Notes: generated from the letters alone by a model not told the origin. 32,000 nt of DNA from Cyclonatronum proteinivorum (GCF_003353065.1 NZ_CP027806.1:1411353-1443352), one strand, 5' to 3'. Counted from the stretch's first letter, positions 1 through 12,419 are shown. Numbers and translations: made by a program.

Positions 1-498
1 GCTACTGCACAAATTGTACAACAAATACAGATTGAAAGAATCACGAGCCTTGAATTTGGTCTATTGGTTCCTGATGAAACAAAATCAATCTTAGTGACCG
101 GTGCACCTGCAGGAACTCCGTCTGTTACAAGTCCAACTAGCGCCGCAAGATTTACAATAACAAAGTCGGGCATACCTGTTACTTTTACCTTGGCGCTTCC
201 TTCAGTGCTTGATGGTTTAGCAAGTACTCCAACTGAGGGCGAAACTTTAGCCTTAAACTTCGATGATACCGCAGATGGTGATAATCCAAATTTAGGCCTT
301 GTAACAGATGCCGACGGTACTAATACCTATGCATTTACCCCTGTTGATGGTGCATCTGTAGATTTAGAAACTGAAGCTTCAGCATTTGATACACTTACAA
401 CTTTTGATATTGTAATCGGTGGTACAGTTGTAGCAAGTGATACACAAGTGGCAGGAAATTACCGTGGAGTAATTACACTTACAGTTGACTACAACTAA
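1..498 (+). CDS. DUF4402 / spore-coat-protein-U-like secreted fimbrial subunit (5' end outside window)
   Basis: Frame 1 is open from base 1 (ATAQIVQQIQIERITSLEFGLLVPDE...), so the ATG at 64 is internal. The sequence is T/S/G/A/V-rich and ends ...QVAGNYRGVITLTVDYN, the C-terminal signature I associate with DUF4402/SCPU-type pilins. A PapD-like chaperone gene follows directly. It is markedly AT-richer than the neighbours. Confidence 0.7.
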   Translation, partial: ATAQIVQQIQIERITSLEFGLLVPDETKSILVTGAPAGTPSVTSPTSAARFTITKSGIPVTFTLALPSVLDGLASTPTEGETLALNFDDTADGDNPNLGLVTDADGTNTYAFTPVDGASVDLETEASAFDTLTTFDIVIGGTVVASDTQVAGNYRGVITLTVDYN

Positions 499-607
499 AT
501 CTCTTAATTCTAATCCTGATTAAGTAGATTCACAGGCCTCAAATACCTATTATGCGGTCTAAGCACTGCACTTTATATATGTTAACTGAAGCCTGACTCC
601 CGCTATC

Positions 608-1498
608 ATGATTCGTTCCGAGGAAAAGTTCCCCATGTCCCGCAAACTGCTTTCTGTAACCGGCTTTATGCTGCTGTTCGGCCTGCTGATGGTCCCGTTT
701 TGGGGCGGCAGCGCACAGCAGGCGCAGGCACAGGTCAGCCTCGCCCCGACATCTCTTTTTATATTTGAGACAGGTGGCATTGGCGAGTTATTTGTAAGTA
801 ACCGCAGTCAAATACCGCAGGAAGTGAATGTGCGGTTTGAGTTTCAGTTCCCGACCTCCGATGCGGAGGGCAACATCCGCATGACAGAAGGGGATGAGGC
901 GATTGCGGCCGAATGGGGACTGGGAGAAATGGTTCGGGTCTTCCCGAGGCGGCTCGTGCTGCAGCCGGGCGAAACACAAACCCTGCGGGTACAGGTTCGC
1001 CCGATGCGCGACCGGCCCGACGGCATGTTTTTCACCCGCGCCATTGTGAGCTCGAACGCCCTGCAGCAGGATGTCGGTCAGCAGGAAGCGGCCGAAGGCA
1101 TCCGCACGCAGATCAACTACATCCTCGAGCAGTCCATCCCCGTGTTCTACCGCAGGGGCAGCAACACCACCGGCGTGGACGTAGAACGAATCGAAGCGAG
1201 CCGTGCCGAACAGGGCCTGAACCTGCTGGTTCACCTGCAGCGCACGGGCAACAGTCCTTTTATGGGTACCATGGGTGCCCAATTGTTCGATATGAACGGC
1301 AATCAGCTTGCCGAAAGCAGCTCCTCGGCCTTCCTCTACTTTGATGAACGCCGCCGGATGACGCTTCGGCACGAGGACCTGCCCCCGGGCCGCTACCGGG
1401 TCGAGCTTTGGTTCGAAACACAGCGGCGCGACATGGCCTCGGGCAATATCGTACAGGCACCCCGCATCACCCACAGCACGATTGTAGAATTACCCTGA
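608..1498 (+). CDS. PapD-like periplasmic pilus chaperone (paralog 1)
   Basis: Signal peptide (...GFMLLFGLLMVPFWGGSAQQAQAQ) followed by a PapD/FimC-like pattern. The pattern elements are VSLAPTSLFIF...ELFVSN, VRVFPRRLVLQPGETQTLRVQVRP...DGMFFTRAIV, and IPVFYRRG (compare the FYRP motif of classical chaperones). Alternative start ATG at 635. Confidence 0.75.
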   Translation: MIRSEEKFPMSRKLLSVTGFMLLFGLLMVPFWGGSAQQAQAQVSLAPTSLFIFETGGIGELFVSNRSQIPQEVNVRFEFQFPTSDAEGNIRMTEGDEAIAAEWGLGEMVRVFPRRLVLQPGETQTLRVQVRPMRDRPDGMFFTRAIVSSNALQQDVGQQEAAEGIRTQINYILEQSIPVFYRRGSNTTGVDVERIEASRAEQGLNLLVHLQRTGNSPFMGTMGAQLFDMNGNQLAESSSSAFLYFDERRRMTLRHEDLPPGRYRVELWFETQRRDMASGNIVQAPRITHSTIVELP

Positions 1499-1534
1499 TG
1501 GAGGTTTGAGTTCAGCGTTTTTTGGACGCAGGAC

Positions 1535-1696
1535 CGGAGACGGAAGACGGAGATCAGAGATCAGAAGTCAGAGGTCAGTGGTCAGTGGTCAGAAGACGGA
1601 TGACGGATGACGGAAGCCAAAAGCCAGAGGTCGGAAGTCAGAGGTCGGAAGCCAACGGTCAAAAAACCGCGGTCTGCGGTCTGCCGTCTGCGGTCA
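1535..1696. repeat. Mosaic heptanucleotide-period tract (about 23 consecutive 7-mers)
   Basis: The tract reads GACGGAA GACGGAG ATCAGAG ATCAGAA GTCAGAG GTCAGTG GTCAGTG GTCAGAA GACGGAT GACGGAT GACGGAA GCCAAAA GCCAGAG GTCGGAA GTCAGAG GTCGGAA GCCAACG GTCAAAA ... GCGGTCT GCGGTCT GCCGTCT GCGGTC. The strict 7-bp register is kept while the word changes every 2-3 copies. Confidence 0.9.
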
Positions 1697-1746
1697 ACAC
1701 CCAAAACCTCTTCAGGAAGACACATTCACATTATTATTCCATATAT

Positions 1747-2340
1747 ATGCTATTGCAACGTAGTTCCTTTTGTGAGCGCTTTCAGCGTGCCCTGTGCGGC
1801 CTTGTGCTGCTTGCGGGTTTGCTGCTGAGCAGCGCTTTATGGAGCAGTTCAGGCATTGCGCAGGCGCAAAACGGCGATGACCCTACGACAGCGACCATCA
1901 GCGTTACGGGCACGGTCATTCTCGGCCTCACCATTGAAGGGGTGCTCGATCTCGTCTTTGATGATATCGTAGCCGGCGATCCGAAAACCATCAACCTTGA
2001 TGGCACGGCAACCGGTGCATCCGTAACCGGTGAAGAGCAGGCCGGCAAGTTCCGCATCGACACAAGGGGGAACTTCACCCTCGAGTTCGTCGATCTGCCG
2101 AACGAAATGATTGGTCCCGACGGGGCCTCCATGCCGGTGAGCTTCTTTAGCGGCTGGTCAGAAGATGATGACGGCGCCAATGCCACCAATCCTGTAGAAA
2201 CCGGCGCCCCAACGCCGGTGCTTGTACCCGAGAGCGAAGTCTTCGTCTTCCTCGGGGCAACCGTAGAACCCCCGCCCACCCAAACACTGGGGCAATACGA
2301 AACCACCGTAACCCTCCGCGCCACCTTCGGCGTGGACTAA
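1747..2340 (+). CDS. DUF4402-like secreted fimbrial subunit (second subunit)
   Basis: The start is moved to ATG 1747 (residue 76 of the tracked ORF) because the upstream 225 nt translate the heptamer tract. From 1747 there is a signal peptide (MLLQRSS...LVLLAGLLLSSALWSSSGIAQAQ). The mature part runs ISVTGTVILGLTIEGVLDLVFDDIVAG...GKFRI...TLGQYETTVTLRATFGVD, the same architecture as the first subunit. Confidence 0.65.
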   Translation: MLLQRSSFCERFQRALCGLVLLAGLLLSSALWSSSGIAQAQNGDDPTTATISVTGTVILGLTIEGVLDLVFDDIVAGDPKTINLDGTATGASVTGEEQAGKFRIDTRGNFTLEFVDLPNEMIGPDGASMPVSFFSGWSEDDDGANATNPVETGAPTPVLVPESEVFVFLGATVEPPPTQTLGQYETTVTLRATFGVD

Positions 2341-2421
2341 ACAAAGGAAACGGTCGGCAAAAACTAAAAAAGTCAGTGATTCGCAGACCCCAAAAGGATG
2401 CGAAACACTGGCTTTGGTTTT

Positions 2422-2548
2422 GAGTTCAGAGTTCGGAGTTCAAAGTTCAGAGTGATTAGTGATTAGTGATTAGTGATTAGTGATTAGTTTCTGGTTTCTG
2501 GTTTCTGACATCTGACATCTGTCTTCTGTCTTCTGTCTTCTGGATTTT
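2422..2548. repeat. Mosaic heptanucleotide-period tract
   Basis: GAGTTCA GAGTTCG GAGTTCA AAGTTCA, then GTGATTA x5, GTTTCTG x3, ACATCTG x2, TCTTCTG x3. An unbroken 7-bp register runs for about 125 bp. Confidence 0.9.
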
Positions 2549-2592
2549 GAACAAGATTTTATCGTGGTATGCATTCAATCCCAGAATATTTG

Positions 2593-2656
2593 AATCATCA
2601 AATCATCAAATCCTTGAATCTTTGAATCCTCAAATCTTTGAATCCCCGAATCCCCC
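2593..2656. repeat. Octanucleotide-period tract, AATCNNNN x8
   Basis: AATCATCA AATCATCA AATCCTTG AATCTTTG AATCCTCA AATCTTTG AATCCCCG AATCCCCC, read directly from the sequence. Confidence 0.9.
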
Positions 2657-2745
2657 TGTATCCGGCGACACCCTGACATATTGAAACACTGACATACTGT
2701 AAACCCCATATCATCCTCTTCAGTTTTCTGATCGCTTCAGCGCTG

Positions 2746-3546
2746 ATGCTGTTTCCGGCCCTGGTATGGGCGCAGATTACGATTACGCCTACCATCGTCT
2801 TCATGCATGATGGAGACCCTGCCGGGCGTATTACGATTACCAACAGTTCGGATGTGCCGCAGGAGGTGAATATCAGCCTCAGTTTTGGCTATCCGGATTC
2901 TGATGAGGCGGGAAATTTGCTGATGAATTATGAAGATGAAGAAGCGGCAGCGCGGTTCGGGCTCGATGATGTGATGCGGGTTTTTCCGCGACGCTTTGAG
3001 CTGGCGCCGGGAGAAAATCAGATCCTGCGCATGCAGGTACAGCAGGCAGGGATGCGCGCTCGCGAAGACGGGCTCCACTGGACCCGTATGAACATCACCT
3101 CCAACGAGCGCACCCGCGCCGTTGATGAGGGTGGAGCAGACCGGATCGGGGCGCGCATCAGTTACCGGATTCAGCAGAACATCGGCATTTTTTACAGGAA
3201 GGGGGAGGTCCGTACGGGCCTCGAACTGCTGCAGCTCAGCGACCGCCGCGATGCGGAAACCGGCGAGCTGCACCTCATCCCCCGCCTGCAGCGCACGGGC
3301 AACAGTCCGTTTATGGGCACCATGTTCGCAAGCCTCCGCGACGCGAGCGGCGCGGTTGTACGCGAAAGCGAGCGCACCTTCAGCGTGTACTTCACCCAAA
3401 CCCGCCCCATCACCCTCGACACCACCGACCTCCCCCCGGGCCGCTACACCGCCCGCCTCCGCTTAGAACCCACCCGTACCGACCTCAACCCCCGCGACCA
3501 AATCCCCGGCGAACCCTTAGAAATCGACCTGGAGGTCGCATGGTAA
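2746..3546 (+). CDS. PapD-like periplasmic pilus chaperone (paralog 2)
   Basis: Same pattern as paralog 1: ITITPTIVFM...ITITNSS, MRVFPRRFELAPGENQILRMQVQ, IGIFYRKG, LQRTGNSPFMGTM, DLPPGRY. The ATG at 2746 leaves only MLFPALVWAQ as a signal peptide. The frame is open back to 2677 and encodes a hydrophobic extension (IILFSFLIASAL), so the true start may be a non-ATG codon upstream. Confidence 0.7.
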   Translation: MLFPALVWAQITITPTIVFMHDGDPAGRITITNSSDVPQEVNISLSFGYPDSDEAGNLLMNYEDEEAAARFGLDDVMRVFPRRFELAPGENQILRMQVQQAGMRAREDGLHWTRMNITSNERTRAVDEGGADRIGARISYRIQQNIGIFYRKGEVRTGLELLQLSDRRDAETGELHLIPRLQRTGNSPFMGTMFASLRDASGAVVRESERTFSVYFTQTRPITLDTTDLPPGRYTARLRLEPTRTDLNPRDQIPGEPLEIDLEVAW

Positions 3547-3589
3547 ATGGGAAAGCGCACCTAAAACGCAACCGCCGAAGAGATGGAGT

Positions 3590-5125
3590 GTCGGGTTCGG
3601 GAAGTGTGGTGGGGATGGTGGGGAAGGGCTCCAAATTCGCCTCTTCAGAGGGGAATTTTGCGGGTTCTTCGCGGGAAATGGAACCGAGTAGCCATGCCAA
3701 ATTAAGCGTCCGACCTCCGAAATTACTTCCCCCCTCCGCTCTTCCCAATTCCCCTCTCGAGAGGGGTGCCCCCGGGAAAAAGTCTTTCGAAGGCAAAAAT
3801 GCCGGAACAGCCCCCAATTTTAAAATAGCCCTTATGCCATTGGGGCGGGGTGTGGAAATGTTGTCAAGTGGGAAGGCCCCCGAAATTACCACGAAAGCCG
3901 GTTACACGCACCGCGTACCCAACATCGAGAGCAATGATGTACCGGGTTGTGCCGGGGCCCCGTGCCCTCCACACCCCGCCCGTTCGCTGCGCTCACCGGG
4001 GCACCCCTCTCGAGAGGGGAATTTTTCTGGTTCTTCGAAGAAAGTTGAACCGAAAGACCTTGCCAAATTAAGCGTCCGACTTCCGAAATTACTTACCCCC
4101 TCCGCTCTCCCCAATTCCCCTCTCGAGAGGGGTGCCCCCGGGAAAAAGTCTTTCGAAGTCACAAAGATCAGAACAGCCCCCAATTTCAAAATGGCCCTTA
4201 TGCCATCGGGGCGGGGTGTGGAAATGTTGTCAAGAGGGAAAAACCCAATTATCACCCCGAAAGCAAGCAACACGCACCACGTACCCCACATCGAGAGCTA
4301 TGATGTGCCGGTAGGTGCCGGGGTCATGTGCCCTCCACACCCCGCCCGTTCGCTGCGCTCACCCGGGCACCCCTCTCGAGAGGGGAATTTTGCTGGTTCT
4401 TCGCAGAAAGTAGAACCGAAGCACCTTCCCAAATTAAGCGTCCGACTTCCGAAAGTAATTACCCCCTCCGCACTCCCCAATTCCCCTCTCGAGAGGGGTG
4501 CCCCCTGGAAAAATTTGTTCAAATGCAAAAAAGCCAGGACAGCCCATAATTTAAAAATGGCCCCGAAGCCATCGGGGCGGGGTGTGGAAATGTTGTCAAG
4601 TGGGAAGGCCCCCGAAATTACCACGAAAGCGGGTTACACGCACCACGTACCCAACATCGAGAGCAATGATGTACCGGGTGGTGCCGGGGTCTCGTGCCCT
4701 CCACACCCCGCCCGTTCGCTGCGCTCACCCGGGCACCCCTCTCGAGAGGGGAATTTTTCTGGTTCTTCGAAGAAAGTTGAACCGAAGCACCTTCCCAAAT
4801 TAAGCGTCCGACTTCCGAAAGTAATTACCCCCTCCGCACTCCCCAATTCCCCTCTCGAGAGGGGTGCCCCCGGGAAAAAGTCTTTCGAAGTCACAAAGAT
4901 CAGAACAGCCCCCAATTTCAAAATGGCTCCGTTGCCAATGGGGCGGGGTGTGGAAATGTTGTCAAGTGGGAAAAACCCAATTATCACCCTGAAAGCCTGC
5001 AACGCGCACCACGTACCCCACATCGAGAGCAATGATGTTCCGGGTTGTGCCGGGGTCTCGTGCCCTCCACACCCCGCCCGTTCGCTGCGCTCACCCGGGC
5101 ACCCCTCTCGAGAGGGGAGTTTTGC
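3590..5125. repeat. Tandem array of a 366-bp unit (~4.2 copies) carrying 8 perfect copies of the palindrome CCCCTCTCGAGAGGGG plus one degenerate copy
   Basis: Perfect palindromes lie at 3751, 4117, 4483 and 4849 (flank orientation B) and at 4004, 4370, 4736 and 5102 (flank orientation A). A degenerate A copy lies near 3638. All same-type spacings are exactly 366 bp. Extended ~23-28-bp flanks (GGGCACCCCTCTCGAGAGGGGAATT) are inverted between the A and B sites. Confidence 0.95.
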
Positions 5126-5189
5126 CAATCCCGCCGCGGTCTGCCGGCTGCGGTCTGCCGTCCTGGTCCCTTTATTGCTGCTGATTTTC

Positions 5190-8141
5190 ATGATGGGGTT
5201 CATCCTTCCCCTTTCCCCATCTCCCCAAAACACGGCATCCGCTTCAACCTCAGCTTCTTTCTTCTTCGACGATACGGATGAAGTGGTGCTCATTTTTAGC
5301 TATCCGGCGGTGGGGCGGGTGTATGTTACGGCTTTGTTCGATTACAATCAGAATGAGCTGCTGATTCCGGTTACGGAGATGTTTACGCTGCTGGGGGTAA
5401 ATTTTTCGCGCGGGGAGACGCAGCGGAATGTGATCGAGGGCGTTTTTCTGACCAACGGGGAGCGGTATTCGATGAATTTCGATAATTTCAGCATCATCAA
5501 GGGCGGGCGGCGGTATGAGTTTGATGCGGAGCGTATGCACTCCGGGGCCCTGGATTTTTACCTCACGCCTGATGTGTGGGAAGATGTGTTCGGGCTGGAA
5601 TTCTCCTTTAATTTCAGCGCGCTGAGTCTGTCGCTGCGCACCGAGCGTATCCTTCCCATAGAGGAGCGCCGGCAGCGGGAGCAGGCGCGGCAGCGGATTG
5701 AGGCCCTGGATTTCGGGCGGTCTTTTAACCCGCTGCTGTTTCCGCGGGAGCGCTCGGTTGTGCGGACCGGCTTTTTGGATTACAACCTGAGTGCCTCGAG
5801 TCTGGTGAACGAACAGCTCCAGAATTACAGCTACAGCTTTATTGGCGGCGGGGAGTTTCTGGGCGGCGATATACAGGGCTCCCACGTTGGGGGCTACACC
5901 GCCGACGGGCAGTGGTTTAACCGTACGAGTAACCTGCGCTGGCGCTATGTGATGCCGGATAATCCGTTTGTGACGACCCTCACCGCGGGGCAGATCAGTA
6001 CCGGCGGTATTAACAGTACGCGGATTCGCGGGCTTTCGATGACCAACGAGCCGGTCGAGTCCCGGCAGCTGTATGGCACCTATGTGCTGGAAGGCCGGGC
6101 CGAGCCGGACAGTGAAATTGAACTCTATTTCAACAACCGCCTGCTGGAGTACACCCGGGCCGACGGCCTCGGGTTTTATCGTTTTGAAGTGCCGCTGCGC
6201 TACGGCACGACCCGCCTCGAAACCCGCATCTACACCCCGAGCGGCGCAATGGAAGTAAGTGAGCGGCAGATTCAGGTGCCTTTTGTGTTCCTGCCGCCGG
6301 GTCAGGTGCAGTACAATCTGGAAGGAGGGGTGCTCGATCAGACTTTTGGGGCGAGCGGCACCAACGTAGCGGCGCATGGCAACGTCGCCTACGGACTAAA
6401 CAGCTGGCTCACGACCCGCGCCGGTATGGAGTACAATGAGTTTGAGAGCGAGGTGCCCAACGCTTACGGCTCCCTCTCGGCCCGCGTATTCTCGCAGTAT
6501 CTGGTGAATGTCGATCTCGTACCTAATGCGTTTTACCGGGCACAGAGCAGCGTCGTGTTTGCCTCAAGCCGCAGCATTGCCGCAACCTATACCTGGTTCG
6601 ATGGTGATTCCCGCTTTAATACGCGGCAGGCGACCGATCAGCTCACTCTGAATTTTTATACGCCCATCCCGTTTTTCAGCAGTTTCAATGCCGGGGTGCG
6701 GTTTTCCGGGGATGTGGTGCGCTACAGCTGGGGCAGCGAAACCCGGGGTTCGGGCGATTTGTTTTTTCGCCTGATGGATGTAAACCTGCGCTTCAACTAC
6801 CGCAATACCCTCATTCAGAGCGGCAGCAGCCTTTCAAGGGGCAACGGGCAGCTTACGGCCACCGGCTCCTACACCATTCCGAGGCAGTCGGTGCTGCCCC
6901 GGCCTTTCCGGAGCGTGTTTCTGCGCGGATCGCTGGTGTATGATGAGCGGCTGAATCAGATTCGCTCCGTAGATGCACAGCTTTCCCGTAATATCGGACG
7001 GATTGGCCGTTTTAATGTGGGGATGACGCGGCAGCTGCTCAACAACATCACCATTGTGCAGGGCGGGCTTAGCCTGGATTTGGGGGGCAAGGTGCGTTCA
7101 TCGACTGATTTCCGCGGGGCATCCGGCAACTACAACCTGCGGCAGGGGCTGCGCGGCTCGGTCGGTTTCGATGATCAGGCAACCTATCTGCAAGCCACGG
7201 ACCGTCAGCAGGTCGGGCGTTCAGCGGCTTCGGTTGTGCTTTTCATCGATAACAACAACAGCGGTACCTTCGATGAAGGCGACGAGCTGCTGCCCTATGC
7301 CGCCGTTCGTCTCGACCGTTCGGCAAGCAGCCGGGTTGGCAGGGACGGTATTCTGCGCCTCACGCAGCTGCAAAGCTATTACCGCTACAATCTCGAAATC
7401 AACCGTAACGCCATCCCGCATCCGCTGCTCGTGCCGGCCAAAGATCAGTTCAGTTTTGTGGCCGATCCGAATCAGTACAAGCGCATCGAAATCCCGTTTT
7501 ACCGCTCCGGCGTGATCGACGGCGAAGTGCTGATCCGCCGGGCCGGCGAAACCGAAGGGCAGGGCGGGATGCGGCTGCTGCTCAGCGGAATTGATCACGA
7601 TTATTCCGAAGTTATCCGTACATTCTTTGGTGGCGGGTTTTATGCAATGGATATCCCTCCGGGCCGCTACACCCTCGAAGTTGATCCCGGTCAGCTGGAT
7701 TTCCTCGGTCTCGTTCCGTTTGACGGGCTTACGGAATTTGAAATACGTGCCCTTGCTGACGGCGATTTTGTTGAAGATATTCGTATCATGCTGGTTCCGC
7801 CCGGAGAAGCATTTGTGCCCGTAACGGCGGAAAGTTTACTTGAACAAGAGCTTTTTGATGAATTGAAGGCGTCCAAACAGGATGCCATCCGGAATTATGT
7901 ACGCGCACAGCATCTTATCTATACGCAGGATTTCAGGGCGGCTTTACAGGCCATTGACGCCTCGCTCCGAATATTCGAAACAGATCACGGACTTGCACTC
8001 CGGGGTACCATTCTGTATCTGCTGGGCGACCGCGATGAAGCGCGCAGGCACTGGCTGCGTGCAAATGAGCGGAATCCCGATATACCGATCCCCAGTACCG
8101 AACTGCTTGACCTGATGATAAGAAACCAAGGGCAGCGCTAA
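5190..8141 (+). CDS. Usher-like outer-membrane pilus assembly protein with C-terminal CarboxypepD_reg-like and TPR modules
   Basis: The tracked ORF formally starts at 3540, but its first ~1.6 kb is the repeat array (see findings). I start at ATG 5190; TTG 5175 is also possible. An usher-like plug/barrel pattern is present: TAGQISTGGINSTRIRGLSMTNEPVESRQLYGTYVLEGRAEPDSEIELYFNNRLLEYTRADGLGFYRFEVPLRYGTTRLETRIYTPSGAMEV. Long beta-rich Y/F/N/S/R sequence follows, then GVIDGEVLIRR...IPPGRYTLEVDP. The tail is TPR-like (FRAALQAIDASLRIFETDHGLALRGTILYLLGDRDEARRHWLRANERNPD). The gene sits downstream of subunit and chaperone genes. Confidence 0.6.
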   Translation: MMGFILPLSPSPQNTASASTSASFFFDDTDEVVLIFSYPAVGRVYVTALFDYNQNELLIPVTEMFTLLGVNFSRGETQRNVIEGVFLTNGERYSMNFDNFSIIKGGRRYEFDAERMHSGALDFYLTPDVWEDVFGLEFSFNFSALSLSLRTERILPIEERRQREQARQRIEALDFGRSFNPLLFPRERSVVRTGFLDYNLSASSLVNEQLQNYSYSFIGGGEFLGGDIQGSHVGGYTADGQWFNRTSNLRWRYVMPDNPFVTTLTAGQISTGGINSTRIRGLSMTNEPVESRQLYGTYVLEGRAEPDSEIELYFNNRLLEYTRADGLGFYRFEVPLRYGTTRLETRIYTPSGAMEVSERQIQVPFVFLPPGQVQYNLEGGVLDQTFGASGTNVAAHGNVAYGLNSWLTTRAGMEYNEFESEVPNAYGSLSARVFSQYLVNVDLVPNAFYRAQSSVVFASSRSIAATYTWFDGDSRFNTRQATDQLTLNFYTPIPFFSSFNAGVRFSGDVVRYSWGSETRGSGDLFFRLMDVNLRFNYRNTLIQSGSSLSRGNGQLTATGSYTIPRQSVLPRPFRSVFLRGSLVYDERLNQIRSVDAQLSRNIGRIGRFNVGMTRQLLNNITIVQGGLSLDLGGKVRSSTDFRGASGNYNLRQGLRGSVGFDDQATYLQATDRQQVGRSAASVVLFIDNNNSGTFDEGDELLPYAAVRLDRSASSRVGRDGILRLTQLQSYYRYNLEINRNAIPHPLLVPAKDQFSFVADPNQYKRIEIPFYRSGVIDGEVLIRRAGETEGQGGMRLLLSGIDHDYSEVIRTFFGGGFYAMDIPPGRYTLEVDPGQLDFLGLVPFDGLTEFEIRALADGDFVEDIRIMLVPPGEAFVPVTAESLLEQELFDELKASKQDAIRNYVRAQHLIYTQDFRAALQAIDASLRIFETDHGLALRGTILYLLGDRDEARRHWLRANERNPDIPIPSTELLDLMIRNQGQR

Positions 8142-8148
8142 CGAAACG

Positions 8149-10221
8149 ATGAAACCAACATTTTGTATGTTTGACAGGGCAAACGATGCAGTTATGATAA
8201 TCAGACCTCAGATTACACGTGTACAACAACGTATGCTTAAGCGCGAAAAAAGTCGTAAACGGCGTTTTTGGATTGCCATTGCAATTGTAGTCGCCCTATG
8301 GGGGGTACTGATGGCGCCCGCTTTGCTGTGGGCGGGCAGCCCTTTTACACAGGTGTCTTCTGATACGGTAACCCTAACGCCCTTTAGTTTCGACCCGCAG
8401 CAGGGCAACCTGTCAGATACCATTGCTGACCCCGCTTCTGATGCGGTGGTCAGCATTGCTGCCGCGACGGCTCTTGAGCGCTCTGAGCGCGAACAGCGGC
8501 TCGACCGGCTCATCCAAAGTGCGATGGTCAACTTTTTTGATTCCGGTACTTTTTTGGTAGATACCAAGGTTTCGCTGGAGTTTGTGCCGGTGCAGCGGCC
8601 CAACGGGGAGCAGGGCGGCGGCGGGGCTGTGAGTCCGGTGCGCGAAAATCTGCCCGGTTTGCCTGGCGTGCCCATGTATCTGCTGCGTTCAAGTGAAGCC
8701 CCCTCTGAAGGCGGACTGACCGAGTACAGCCTTGAGCTCCGCCGTATAGAAGTTGAAATGCTCGTTGACTCGGATTATACCGCAGATGAAATCAATTTTG
8801 TAGATCAGCTGATTCGGGCAACGGCCAAAATTGACGACGCCCGCGGCGACCGTGTCACCATCACACGCTCCTCCTTCCCGCAGCGCCGCACAGCACAGAA
8901 CGGCACCGCCCCAACCGTACAGCCATTGCCCGACACCTTCCCGGGGCCTGATGCCCTGCAGGAGCGTCCGCCGGTACCTCCTATGGAAGTGCCGCTATGG
9001 GAGCAGATTTTAGCGGAACCCCTCTATTGGATTCCCCTGCTCATGCTGTTTGGGTTATTCATTGGTTTTTTAATATGGCTGCTCACCCGTAAGCGCGATG
9101 AGCGCGACAAAGAACCCATGAGCCGTCCGGATGCGCCTGCACCGCCACCGGTCATGCCGCCCATCGGTGAAGCTGTACACCCGGATACGCTTGCGCGGAA
9201 AAAGCGGGAAATGGAAAAGCGGGAGCAGGCCAGAGAAAACGACTACGCGACCTATCTGTTGGAGCAAATCATGCAGTATCCGCCGGAGATGGCGCGCCTG
9301 TTTGAATCGTGGATGAAAAAAGAAGGCGAAAAAGGTCTTATGAAGGCGGCACACATCCTGCTGCTCACCGATCCCAAGCTCGTGCGGGTGCTCAAGCCCG
9401 CCATGACCGAGGAGCGGTTTAACGCGCTAAAAGCCCGTGTTGAAGCCTCCGGTGAACAGCCGGGGGAGGAAGCCATGAAAGAGCTGCGCAACCTCACGCG
9501 CTATCTGAAAGCCCGTACGCAGGAAAATACGGTACGCCGCGGGCTGCGTGCCCTCAACGATTTCGACTTCGTACAGCATGAAGATGACGATCGCCTGCTG
9601 CTGCATCTCATAGATTACGAACCGCGCGAAATTGCCATCATCCTGAGTCACCTTGAGAGCAAGCGTGCGGCCCTCATGCTGCGGGAGTTCGAACCCGAAA
9701 AATCGCAGCAGGTCATGCTTGAGCTTCCTAAAGTGAAAAATACCGATTATGAGACCTACCGCAGTCTGGCCGAAGACTTTTTTAACCGCATCAGTACGGA
9801 TACGGACGATGATGAGCGGTTTAAGGAAAGCGATGTAGCAGAAACGGTGAAGCTGATTGAATCGCTGCCGCTGCGTCAGCAGGAAGAAACGAGCGAGCGT
9901 TTTATGCGTGAGGAAAACCCCTACGCCGCAGCCGTTACAAGCCGCATGATTACCTTCATGACGCTCTCAACGGTGAGTGATGATATCATTACGGAAGCCA
10001 TTCAGCCGATTGGCACCGAACAGCTCGGGCTGGCCCTGGCAGGTATGGATTCCGAAACGGCATTCCGGCTCATCAGCCTGCGTCCGGAGCGCGAGCAGAT
10101 GGTGCTGCATTCCGAAATGGAAAATGCGGCCGTAGTCAGCGATGAGAAAATCAATGAAGCCAAGAACAGCCTGCTCAACCGAATCCGCGCAACTGCGCGC
10201 AGCAAACAGCAAACGGTTTAG
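8149..10221 (+). CDS. Two-TM inner-membrane protein: FliF/YscJ-like periplasmic segment fused to a FliG-like (FliG_M/FliG_C or MgtE_N-like) cytoplasmic domain
   Basis: TM1 is about 8266-8333 (WIAIAIVVALWGVLMAPALLWA) and TM2 about 9022-9087 (LYWIPLLMLFGLFIGFLIWLL). The periplasmic part ends YSLELRRIEVEMLVDSDYTADEINFVDQLIRATAKIDDARGDRVTITRSSFP, resembling the end of the FliF ring domains. The cytoplasmic part has YEPREIAIILSHLESKRAALMLREFEPEKSQQVMLEL (compare the EHPQ-region of the FliG middle domain). It also has LGLALAGMDSETAFRLISLRPEREQMVLHSEMEN...INEAKNSLLNRIR (compare the FliG C-terminal torque-helix region). Alternative starts at 8167, 8194 and 8233. Confidence 0.6.
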   Translation: MKPTFCMFDRANDAVMIIRPQITRVQQRMLKREKSRKRRFWIAIAIVVALWGVLMAPALLWAGSPFTQVSSDTVTLTPFSFDPQQGNLSDTIADPASDAVVSIAAATALERSEREQRLDRLIQSAMVNFFDSGTFLVDTKVSLEFVPVQRPNGEQGGGGAVSPVRENLPGLPGVPMYLLRSSEAPSEGGLTEYSLELRRIEVEMLVDSDYTADEINFVDQLIRATAKIDDARGDRVTITRSSFPQRRTAQNGTAPTVQPLPDTFPGPDALQERPPVPPMEVPLWEQILAEPLYWIPLLMLFGLFIGFLIWLLTRKRDERDKEPMSRPDAPAPPPVMPPIGEAVHPDTLARKKREMEKREQARENDYATYLLEQIMQYPPEMARLFESWMKKEGEKGLMKAAHILLLTDPKLVRVLKPAMTEERFNALKARVEASGEQPGEEAMKELRNLTRYLKARTQENTVRRGLRALNDFDFVQHEDDDRLLLHLIDYEPREIAIILSHLESKRAALMLREFEPEKSQQVMLELPKVKNTDYETYRSLAEDFFNRISTDTDDDERFKESDVAETVKLIESLPLRQQEETSERFMREENPYAAAVTSRMITFMTLSTVSDDIITEAIQPIGTEQLGLALAGMDSETAFRLISLRPEREQMVLHSEMENAAVVSDEKINEAKNSLLNRIRATARSKQQTV

Positions 10222-10286
10222 CCAGTCCGGTAAACCACGGCTTAGCCCAACTTCTAATTTTCTAATCTTAATGGTGTAAGGCGTAC

Positions 10287-10808
10287 ATGCTTAGTAAATC
10301 CCCATCCGGTCTGAATGGCTTCCTGCCAGCCCTGACTGCTGTCCTGCTGCTCCTGCTGCTGGTCGGATGCAGCTCCTCCGGCACGGCCGTACCGGCAGGG
10401 AGTGAGGGCGGAGATCCTCAGGCGGCGGAAGACGTACTGCAACGCCGTACGCTTGAAGTGGCAGATACCTCCGCGGCGCAGGCATCGCAGGATTCTGTTA
10501 CCGAAGCAGAAGAGGTCCGGCTGAGCTCCCGTTTTGTTGAAGAGGCGTTTGCGGACTACGCACAGCGGACCAACACCAAGCTCACCCTCTTTTTTCAGGC
10601 ACAGCAGCGCTACCATGCCGGGCAGTATGTGGAAGCGCTGCGGCTCATAAACCGCGCCCTGGAGTGGGGCGAAAGCGCCGATGCCCTTGCCATGAAAGGA
10701 CTGATATTTGCCGGTCTTCAGGCCGAAGAGCAGGCCATTAGCTACTGGCAGCGCGCCATTGCGCTCGATCCGGATGTGTTTGAGCGCATCCTGCTACCCC
10801 GCGAATAG
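10287..10808 (+). CDS. TPR-repeat lipoprotein
   Basis: Lipobox LLLLVGC after a hydrophobic leader. The C-terminal half is TPR-like (QQRYHAGQYVEALRLINRALEWGESADALAMKGLIFAGLQAEEQAISYWQRAIALDP). Confidence 0.7.
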   Translation: MLSKSPSGLNGFLPALTAVLLLLLLVGCSSSGTAVPAGSEGGDPQAAEDVLQRRTLEVADTSAAQASQDSVTEAEEVRLSSRFVEEAFADYAQRTNTKLTLFFQAQQRYHAGQYVEALRLINRALEWGESADALAMKGLIFAGLQAEEQAISYWQRAIALDPDVFERILLPRE

Positions 10809-10874
10809 CAAGCAGAAGTACCACAGAAACGAACGCAGGTGTGATCCCTTAAACTGAACCCCAAAAACTGAACC

Positions 10875-11693
10875 ATGCGCATATCCTGGGCTACCGTAAT
10901 CTGCATCCTTGTGTTTGGCTTTTTGCTTGTACTCTCCGTACTGCAAACGCTGGATGTTGTGCAGATTGTCCGATTCCCGTCCGCCCTTGATTTTCTGAAT
11001 CTGCCGAGCGTAGGCATCGTGGCCGGCGGGGTTATGCTGCACGTGCTTATCTCGTATCCTTTCTATGAAATCAGGCGTGCGTTAGTCGCTTTCATACACG
11101 TGTTTTCGGAAAGTGCCCTCGACAGGGAAACGTTTAAGAACGATCGCAGGCGTATTCTGGAATGGCAGCGCCTGTACCGCGACAACCGCAATAAAACACG
11201 TAAAGAGCTGGCCGAACAGCTCAGCGATACGTTTGAAGGCTACGTTTTTACCCTGCTGAATACCAACTACAGCCGGGATGAAATTCTGGATATGGGCGGC
11301 ATCAAAATTGAAGAGCGCTACAACGATACGGTACAAACTTCGCGGGTTTTCCAAACCATGGGTACAGCCGCGCCGGCAATCGGGATGCTGGGGACGCTTA
11401 TGGGGCTCATCATCATGCTGGCCAATTTTCAGGATGCCGAGCAGCTCGGTCTCGGGCTTTCATTTGCCCTCATGACAACGCTGTACGGTCTGGTGCTGGC
11501 GCATTTGCTGATGTTTCCGCTGGCAACCAAGTTCAGGGTAATGGCGCAGCATCAGTACTTCCGGGAGCGGGTGATGCTGGAAGGCATCCTCATGCTGCAC
11601 GAGGGCAAACCACCGCTCATGATTTATGACAAGCTCGGTGCTTTCATTTCAACCCTGAAAGACGATACCAAAGATTTTGCGCCCACCGGCTGA
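10875..11693 (+). CDS. MotA/TolQ/ExbB proton-channel family protein (MotA-like stator subunit)
   Basis: Two N-terminal TM helices, a charged cytoplasmic loop, then the family signature TMGTAAPAIGMLGTLMGLIIML...LSFALMTTLYGLVLAHLLMFPLATKF. At 272 aa it has no long ZorA-type tail. A MotB-like gene follows directly. Confidence 0.85.
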   Translation: MRISWATVICILVFGFLLVLSVLQTLDVVQIVRFPSALDFLNLPSVGIVAGGVMLHVLISYPFYEIRRALVAFIHVFSESALDRETFKNDRRRILEWQRLYRDNRNKTRKELAEQLSDTFEGYVFTLLNTNYSRDEILDMGGIKIEERYNDTVQTSRVFQTMGTAAPAIGMLGTLMGLIIMLANFQDAEQLGLGLSFALMTTLYGLVLAHLLMFPLATKFRVMAQHQYFRERVMLEGILMLHEGKPPLMIYDKLGAFISTLKDDTKDFAPTG

Positions 11694-11756
11694 CCATGGC
11701 ACGGTATCTCTATTTCAATATCTATATCATAAACCAGCTACGCGTACAATCACAGC

Positions 11757-12419
11757 ATGCGATTCCGTCCTACCGATGATAATGAAGGCTTCACCAATGA
11801 GTCCTGGCAGACGAGCTTCCTCGATATCTTTATGCTGCTGCTCGCCTTTTTTATTATCCTGGCCGGGCTGGCCCGCTACGACATGCGTATTTTTGATGAC
11901 GACGCCCGCGGCCTGCGTTCTCTGATTCAGGGTACCATGCGGGTGCAGACCCCGATAGATGAGCTGCGGTTTGATATGCAGGATGCGCTCTCTGCTGAAA
12001 TCGGGAGTCAGATGCTGCAGCTCGATAGCGACCGCGATGAAATGCGCCTGAGTTTCACCGATGCCCGTTTTTTTGAAACGGCCCGCGCGGAGCTGCTACC
12101 GGAAGGCAAGGCGCTGATAGACCGCATTATGGAAGTCATGGCCGAGCTCAAATTCTATCAGTATTACATTGATGTTGAAGGCCATACCGATAACCGGCCC
12201 ATCAGCACTTTACAGTTTCCCTCCAACTGGGAGCTCTCCGCGGCCCGTGCCTCCAACATCATCCGCTATTTTATGGAGCAGGGCTTCGAACCGTCCCGCC
12301 TCAAAGCCAGCGGCTACGCCGAAACCCGCCCAATTGTACCCAATCAGGACGAATTCGGCAACGACCTCCCCGACAATCAGGCCCTGAACCGCCGGGTTGT
12401 GATCCGGATTTATTATTGA
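11757..12419 (+). CDS. MotB-like stator subunit with OmpA-type peptidoglycan-binding domain
   Basis: The N-terminal TM has the conserved channel Asp (SFLDIFMLLLAFFIIL; GAT at 11823-11825). The C-terminal OmpA-like domain reads VEGHTDNRPI...FPSNWELSAARASNIIRYF...SGYAETRPI...NRRVVIRI. Confidence 0.85.
   Translation: MRFRPTDDNEGFTNESWQTSFLDIFMLLLAFFIILAGLARYDMRIFDDDARGLRSLIQGTMRVQTPIDELRFDMQDALSAEIGSQMLQLDSDRDEMRLSFTDARFFETARAELLPEGKALIDRIMEVMAELKFYQYYIDVEGHTDNRPISTLQFPSNWELSAARASNIIRYFMEQGFEPSRLKASGYAETRPIVPNQDEFGNDLPDNQALNRRVVIRIYY

Follow-up and report, generated by a model that had tools for sequence, protein, structure and literature searches.

A repeat array separating pilus chaperone and usher genes in Cyclonatronum proteinivorum: probable local amplification of a gene-less inverted-repeat element

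The stretch of DNA analysed here (the window) is 32 kb from Cyclonatronum proteinivorum (Balneolales). The genes in the neighbourhood encode two DUF4402 proteins, two PapD-like proteins, an usher, a FliF/FliG-like fusion, a TPR protein, MotA and MotB/OmpA, and a repeat array separates the chaperone from the usher. The sequences that frame the array are as follows.

2746..3546, + strand: PapD-like chaperone gene, an ORF with a weak PapD_N match (E 6.7e-4, under the Pfam cut-off)
3540..3639, + strand: unique sequence from the chaperone stop to the array, without similarity at a 366-bp offset before ~3640
5126..5189, + strand: array-to-usher junction, read from the sequence
5190..8141, + strand: usher gene as annotated by NCBI (P0003, 100% identity and 100% coverage)

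The stop codon of the chaperone gene overlaps an ATG at position 3540, which opens the +3 frame that crosses the array. On the other side, the junction contains a 14-nt direct repeat at 5130-5157 and encodes CRLRS, a signal-peptide-like n-region, at 5142-5156, with possible starts at CTG 5148 and TTG 5175. The usher itself is a protein of 983 aa, annotated in Cyclonatronum proteinivorum as 'fimbria/pilus outer membrane usher protein'. Its NCBI start is ATG 5190, and the array is therefore treated by NCBI as intergenic.

Tandem Repeats Finder places the array at 3640-5125 with a period of 366 bp, 4.1 copies, 87% matches and 0% indels, bearing out the exact 366-bp period reported in a first-pass annotation made from the sequence alone. 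Similarity at the 366-bp offset sets in at ~3640, and ~4759+366 marks the end of the final full comparison. Eight perfect palindromes CCCCTCTCGAGAGGGG lie within the array, at 3751, 4004, 4117, 4370, 4483, 4736, 4849 and 5102, and the same word is absent from the rest of the 32-kb window (0 expected in shuffles). Their spacing alternates between 253 and 113 bp and their flanks are inverted across 25-31 nt (94-100%), in agreement with the earlier description of two perfect palindromes per unit with inverted flanks. The 366-bp unit is best interpreted as the combination of a 277-bp element and an 89-bp linker, and the array can be laid out accordingly (the palindromes at 4004, 4370, 4736 and 5102 are termed A-type).

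3640..3657, + strand: degenerate A-type hairpin CCTCTTCAGAGGGGAATT at the left edge of the array, from the inverted-repeat search
3658..3746, + strand: linker 1, 89 nt, with further copies at 4024-4112, 4390-4478 and 4756-4844
3747..4023, unstranded: element copy 1, 277 nt, variant 1, hairpins 3751-3766 and 4004-4019
Interior of element copy 1: G-tail 3842-3856, core 3857-3967, C-tail 3968-3981, small hairpin region 3982-4003
4113..4389, unstranded: element copy 2, variant 2, hairpins 4117-4132 and 4370-4385, tails 4208-4222 and 4334-4347
4479..4755, unstranded: element copy 3, variant 1, hairpins 4483-4498 and 4736-4751, tails 4574-4588 and 4700-4713
4845..5121, unstranded: element copy 4, variant 2, hairpins 4849-4864 and 5102-5117, tails 4940-4954 and 5066-5079

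The degenerate hairpin at 3640-3657 is an addition to the features listed in the first-pass annotation; A-type hairpins bound the array on both edges. Units 1 and 3 group against units 2 and 4 at 16 sites, while each of the other two possible groupings is backed by 2 sites, so the two alternating variants proposed previously, and with them the 732-bp higher-order repeat, are real. Element identity is 91.6% between copies 1 and 3, 93.1% between copies 2 and 4, and 86-88% for the remaining pairs. The linkers (79-97% identical) show a different, gradient-like pattern instead of the alternation seen in the elements. An assembly artefact was rejected because the units differ by 7-15%, and a CRISPR-like reading was rejected because the 'spacers' are repeats too.

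Each element is built from two inverted copies of one module placed around a 111-nt core. From the left, the order is AATT, hairpin, TGCCC with ~75 nt, GGGGCGGGGTGTGGA and the core; on the right, TCCACACCCCGCCC, a short hairpin region, GGGCA, hairpin and AATT complete the element. An element end can be summarized as AATT, a CCCCTC-TCGA-GAGGGG hairpin, a variable and usually hairpin-forming insert, and a GGGGTGTG tail. In copy 1 AATT precedes the hairpin at 3751-3766, with the left variable part next, and AATT also follows the hairpin at 4004-4019, while copy 4 terminates in AGTT and not AATT. The AATT flanking both element ends may belong to the repeat itself or may represent a target duplication. 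The inner stems GGGGCGGGGTGTGGA and TCCACACCCCGCCC, which are predicted to pair, are identical in 4/4 units. The additional inner GGCCCC/GGGGCC pairing suggested for these stems did not hold up equally well, being lost in the second variant with no compensatory change; it alone is weak, and every numbered sequence observation of the first-pass annotation is otherwise confirmed. Conservation acts at the level of the nucleic acid, as had been argued: 4 of 104 columns vary in the hairpin and end modules, against 48 of 173 elsewhere in cores and linkers (p = 1.6e-7, four copies). A 366-nt stretch comprising element copy 2 and the next linker has a predicted folding energy of -143 kcal/mol (z -6.7), and a single strand of the element is predicted to form one extended hairpin, with a perfect duplex of 25 bp closing it.

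The end module is widespread. One genome per species (596 Gb) was scanned with the 20-mer CCCCTCTCGAGAGGGGAATT, which matched at least 120 stretches where, by arithmetic, ~1 would be expected by chance. The matches listed come from Ignavibacteria, Bacteroidota, Balneolales, Zixibacteria, Aminicenantes, Patescibacteria and others, and nearly all of them have the upstream word ACACACCCC in common. In the loci listed, 202 of 208 hairpins carry the GGGGTGTG tail on at least one side, at most 110 nt away. Many copies have 2-5 nt separating the tail from the hairpin; elsewhere the two are separated by a perfect hairpin whose sequence is unrelated and whose loop is often CTTCGG. Such hairpin inserts of unrelated sequence are covariation-like and point to a structure formed in single-stranded DNA or in RNA. 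The window's 54-nt module recurs at 100% identity in two Balneolales contigs (L064 and L068). The remainder of the 366-bp unit (the 111-nt core and the 89-nt linker) was not found in the other loci searched, so that it is the module, and not the exact window element, whose dispersal is supported. A core-specific 22-mer had no metagenome match, and a metagenome scan with the Balneolales-specific variable part returned two partial look-alikes that lack the hairpin. At a permissive threshold, the array gave chance-level Rfam matches only (mir-8927 and serC leader, far under the cut-offs); 20 related loci gave one unrelated Flavo-1 match, beside a module and not on one. Literature searches with these DNA words and the encoded peptide words found nothing relevant. 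The family is thus absent from Rfam, and no published description was found in the literature searched.

Arrays of modules occur in other genomes as well. A Neomarinimicrobiota MAG (L006) has a module array with a period of ~243 in which one unit contains a DUF559 gene, modules alternate at ~78/49 in two further loci (L023 and L108), and module spacings are 361-380 in L042. In 85 of 127 module instances no frame is open for 30 codons on both sides. On a crude gene map, 69 of the modules lying within 150 nt of a gene end are near 3' ends and 33 are near 5' ends. Inverted module pairs enclose 13-31 nt (Mucilaginibacter and others), 83-142 nt (Balneolales, the window included) or 365-584 nt.

The longest of these classes corresponds to a DUF559 ORF (PF04480, E ~1e-30). 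DUF559 is a Vsr-like PD-(D/E)XK nuclease domain, and the nuclease gene, of ~130 aa, is bracketed by module ends in L006, L010, L051, L073 and L116. Proteins that recur in the vicinity of modules cluster into T9SS-tail proteins, DUF559 and a few syntenic housekeeping genes (in up to 3 loci); the other recurrent ORF clusters were dismissed as syntenic housekeeping genes or spurious repeat ORFs. The association was also approached from the protein side, using six DUF559 homologues on unrelated contigs that were fetched by protein, independently of the hairpin. All six have AATTCCCCTCTTGAGAGGGG-N-GGGGTGTGT directly ahead of the start codon. An inverted copy stands at or just past the stop codon in five, while L129 has a nested inverted pair upstream only. 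Both inverted ends, of ~32 nt, are present in four of the six, the ends of L130 match at 32/32 positions, and L127 is preceded by an extra nested pair. The loop reads TTGA in the left copy and TCAA in the right copy, identifying the ends as true terminal inverted repeats. Terminal inverted repeats of the same design lie at both ends of each 277-bp element in the window. Because the DUF559 genes share these ends, the window elements are gene-less, non-autonomous relatives of a small nuclease-carrying element. They are small and without coding capacity, having neither protein-level constraint nor a DUF559 remnant: an HMM search in six frames of the window found no match to a decayed DUF559 gene. 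The first-pass annotation had missed this dispersed, cross-phylum inverted-repeat element and the DUF559 nuclease gene carried by its full form. Judged by title and abstract, none of the listed papers that mention DUF559 describes such an element.

The array was compared with orthologous usher loci. In a Candidatus Cyclonatronum MAG (L121), which encodes an usher 87% identical to that of the window, a different array of tandem or alternating modules stands directly upstream of the usher start; the contig opens inside this module-containing repeat region, and its cores resemble those of L064, unlike those of the window. Two more distant loci (L122 and L123, ushers 79% and 69% identical) have no modules between the genes, where unrelated spacers of 230 nt and 97 nt are found. 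By this comparison the array is a young insertion, specific to the lineage and changing fast, and since the two Cyclonatronum arrays differ in both cores and spacing, what they conserve is the generic module and no more specific structure. A pair of empty and filled sites with defined junctions was not recovered.

Taken together, we consider the array to be probably a local tandem amplification of a gene-less, MITE-like inverted-repeat element, putatively mobile, with a resemblance to BIME clusters. As the palindrome belongs to a dispersed element linked to DUF559, a selfish-DNA origin becomes the primary explanation. The Cyclonatronum lineage would have acquired a single element in the space separating chaperone from usher. 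End modules of the same orientation would then have recombined unequally, duplicating the element together with its linker, two variants would have formed, and the 732-bp double unit would have been duplicated in turn. The operon transcript probably includes the array, and the RNA of the array may fold into 25-bp perfect duplexes and hairpins followed by AAUUUUU, and partial termination or RNase III-type cleavage could lower expression of the usher and motor genes relative to the subunits. Such an effect on the operon would be a secondary by-product and not the reason for the existence of the array.

The three roles proposed earlier for the array (stacked intra-operon attenuators, tandem sRNA genes and invertible segments) are not supported as primary explanations. 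A regulatory function fares best among the alternatives, though it remains unlikely as the reason the array is kept. Here the array would be a domesticated intra-operon regulator, retained for the termination or processing of the polycistronic RNA at its hairpins, which would yield a high ratio of subunit and chaperone to usher and motor proteins. Such domestication is compatible with a selfish origin, and E. coli REP/BIME and Neisseria Correia elements do act as regulators within operons. The array sits mid-operon, between chaperone and usher, is predicted to form the perfect duplexes described above (z -6.7), and has modules directly upstream of the usher in the sister genome as well. Because both Cyclonatronum genomes carry arrays at the same spot, the site could be a useful one. 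Elsewhere, too, modules are found near 3' ends about twice as often as near 5' ends. The A-type hairpins, which had been put forward as weak plus-strand intrinsic terminators, are indeed followed by the T-rich tails AATTTTTCTG or AATTTTGCTG, and three were flagged as terminator-like. However, their stems are only 6 bp, the tail begins with AA, and the 8 terminator-like sites in 2600-5600 are not clearly above the number in shuffles (4.6 +/- 2.1). From their sequence, the A-type hairpins appear to be weak terminator look-alikes only. Moreover, the operon of the relatives has an unrelated spacer of 97-230 nt without modules, and the two Cyclonatronum arrays share the generic module only.

We regard it as improbable that the array is a translated in-frame insertion, that is, that the frame opening at ATG 3540 is coupled to the chaperone stop and really translated. 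The product could be a basic repeat extension of the usher; alternatively, translation could keep ribosomes on the 1.6-kb C-rich gap and so stop hairpins and Rho from silencing the downstream genes. What commends this reading is the frame itself. As had been noticed from the start, the +3 frame is open from 3540, through to 8141, extending over 550 codons across the array stretch, and the period is a multiple of three (366 = 3 x 122), so that array and usher are fused in an ORF of 1533 aa. This frame is open more often than chance suggests: 6% of shuffled units have any open frame (P ~0.06), and the chance of the observed substitutions introducing no stop is 0.02-0.05. Outside the array there is no canonical in-frame start upstream of CRLRS, the candidates being CTG 5148, TTG 5175 and ATG 5190, and the + strand is rich in C (31.6% C vs 24.8% G). 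Family modules are also found in frame within real coding sequences: in Ignavibacteria ~6 copies lie in T9SS C-terminal sorting domains, where a loop gains ~10 residues from the module (for example ...FEIPLSRGVSAEGGRGVFVKLVVYD... against ...FEIPKSGFVKITIFD... in a paralogue, with a Pfam Por_Secre_tail match that spans the insert).

Against translation, the differences between units are spread evenly over codon positions (27/21/24) with a pN/pS of 0.92 in the open frame, and the array has a non-genic codon score of -0.24 per codon, compared to +0.28 to +0.52 for nine neighbouring genes. The encoded peptide is indeed basic amid an acidic proteome, with a pI of 10.3 vs 4.0-6.5 for the neighbouring genes, and a signal peptide placed behind ~540 residues would be non-functional. 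As a protein query, the whole 1533-aa ORF gave two weak matches only, and none of the orthologous ushers compared carries an N-terminal repeat domain. Purifying selection, genic codon usage and a domain shared with orthologues, the marks of a protein-coding repeat domain, were all missing. With the NCBI start at 5190 and the module-free relatives, these results sustain the original judgement, and the array is most likely non-coding. The 1.5-kb 'gap', or 1533-aa fused ORF, is then repeat DNA and not usher. The usher start is flagged as uncertain; genes of this genome lack Shine-Dalgarno sequences, so this criterion is of no help in choosing it.

The remaining possibilities, tandem structured sRNA genes of the NsiR1/LhrC type or invertible segments for phase variation, are very improbable: the predicted structure is strong and perfect inverted repeats could support inversion, but no unit contains a sigma-70-like or Bacteroidetes-type (TAnnTTTG) promoter, no Rfam family matches, compensatory changes are found in 0/78 predicted pairs of the array units, conservation is limited to the generic ends while the cores vary, the arrangement is missing from L122 and L123 and takes another form in L121, domain searches of the ORFs in the 32-kb window revealed neither a recombinase nor a transposase, and elsewhere identical ends bracket a nuclease gene.

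The favoured reading, an amplified gene-less element of selfish origin, can be set against known repeat systems. Like REP/BIME sequences and REPINs with their RAYT genes, the family consists of short hairpin repeats that are mostly extragenic and near gene 3' ends. As in BIME clusters, modules alternate in orientation with two kinds of linker and form tandems within operons (253/113 in the window, ~78/49 in L023 and L108), and as with RAYT a single nuclease gene is bracketed by inverted repeat copies. The gene, however, is DUF559, a Vsr-like PD-(D/E)XK nuclease, whereas RAYT is an HUH Y1 transposase and is not among the recurrent clusters. The flanking word is AATT rather than the GTAG/GGAG of REP, the ends have an extra GGGGTGTG tail and variable hairpin, and the window unit measures 366 bp as opposed to tens of bp. 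While REPs are species-specific, the family 20-mer is common to several phyla. MITEs and the Neisseria Correia/NEMIS elements offer a second comparison, since they too lack genes, measure 100-300 bp and have terminal inverted repeats. Correia elements are co-transcribed with their neighbours, and their long hairpins can be cut by RNase III, altering mRNA stability. Co-transcription and long hairpin folds are likewise predicted in the window, but no target-site duplication is defined there, and tandem amplification together with a linker is atypical for Correia elements. In contrast to MITEs, the presumed autonomous partner here codes for a nuclease whose family is not known to include transposases. 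Rickettsia palindromic elements (RPEs) also lie in frame, as the family does in T9SS domains and the array in the usher frame. RPEs, however, are restricted to Rickettsia and have no nuclease gene, and translation of the window array is unsupported by its substitutions.

The DUF559/Vsr-like fold is known as a homing-endonuclease family, and in its EDxHD/Vsr-like members (I-Bth0305I; the 'fractured gene' arrangement) it serves as a free-standing or intron-borne endonuclease whose selfish gene, as in the present family, lies between or within host genes (PMC3239194, PMC2677866, PMC3424549). Those members differ from the family described here in sitting in group I introns or between the halves of split inteins. 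To our knowledge, EDxHD/Vsr-like endonucleases have not been described with hairpin terminal inverted repeats or gene-less derivatives, and we know of the DUF559-type nuclease family only as repair enzymes and as intron- or intein-linked homing endonucleases.

A wider proposal is made more tentatively, at somewhat less than even confidence: that the modules belong to an undescribed family of tiny (~0.45-0.65 kb) cross-phylum mobile elements with a DUF559 gene between hairpin-containing terminal inverted repeats, of which the array is a gene-less form. The family would be a counterpart of REP-RAYT built on a different nuclease, and the source of solo modules, mini-elements, BIME-like arrays and in-frame T9SS inserts; in Cyclonatronum it may have been recruited to a role between chaperone and usher. 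The palindrome of a single operon leads to an element that is widespread, with ends that stay the same base for base even between distant phyla. If the nuclease mobilizes the repeats, it would constitute a new enzyme class for systems that make REP- or MITE-type repeats. Such mobilization would also explain many stray hypothetical peptides resembling 'PLSRG...GRGV', breaks in assemblies and in-frame insertions in secretion-tag domains. Candidate modes of movement for the family are homing by the nuclease and transposition through hairpin ends. The DUF559 element is inserted between ftsA and ftsZ in L130 and between hsdS and hsdR in L127.

The module (AATT, a palindromic hairpin, a variable part and a conserved tail) was found to interrupt T9SS C-terminal sorting domains in frame at loci of other genomes (L011, L020, L040, L057, L059 and L103). 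A loop of the sorting domain thereby gains approximately 10 residues (PLSRGV...GRGV), and adjacent paralogues of the module-bearing proteins were observed without the module. A single intergenic module (ACACACCCCTGCA, hairpin and AATT) lies at 1398-1417 of the IMG/VR viral contig L124. At the module-bearing locus of Aureivirga sp. CE67 (L018), a match to the Flavo-1 RNA (6262-6407, minus strand; 44.7 bits, cut-off 42) was located approximately 60 nucleotides upstream of a module.

Inverted ends of approximately 32 nucleotides, AATTCCCCTCTTGAGAGGGG-N3-GGGGTGTGT, are conserved at small DUF559 nuclease genes on six contigs fetched by protein homology:

1501-~1900, in each of L127, L129, L130, L131, L132 and L133: DUF559 nuclease gene

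The nuclease genes at these loci are flanked by housekeeping genes; examples of such gene pairs are ftsA-ftsZ and hsdS-hsdR. Many DUF559 homologues reside on contigs of only 0.5-2 kb, as expected where repeats break assemblies.

The gene cluster at window 64-12419, which is also kept in the relatives L121 and L123, encodes DUF4402 subunits, PapD-like chaperones, a TPR-tailed usher, a FliF/FliG-like fusion protein, MotA and MotB/OmpA. It is unusual to find a stator-like motor combined with a chaperone-usher system in this way. Short tandem repeats were detected at the second DUF4402 gene and the second chaperone gene or a short distance upstream of them, with repeated words including GAGGTCA and AGTGATT (5.4 perfect copies):

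Window 1543-1651 and 2422-2653: short tandem repeat runs, repeat lengths 7, 14, 16, 21 and 24 nucleotides

The usher start given by NCBI (ATG 5190) falls within the hydrophobic core of the signal-peptide-like segment. Within window 5126-5190, the sole start candidate upstream of the signal-peptide n-region (CRLRS) is CTG 5148. In L121, a Candidatus Cyclonatronum MAG, the usher likely starts at GTG 861 (region 845-915); this codon and the first codons following it fall in sequence similar to the linker of the repeat.
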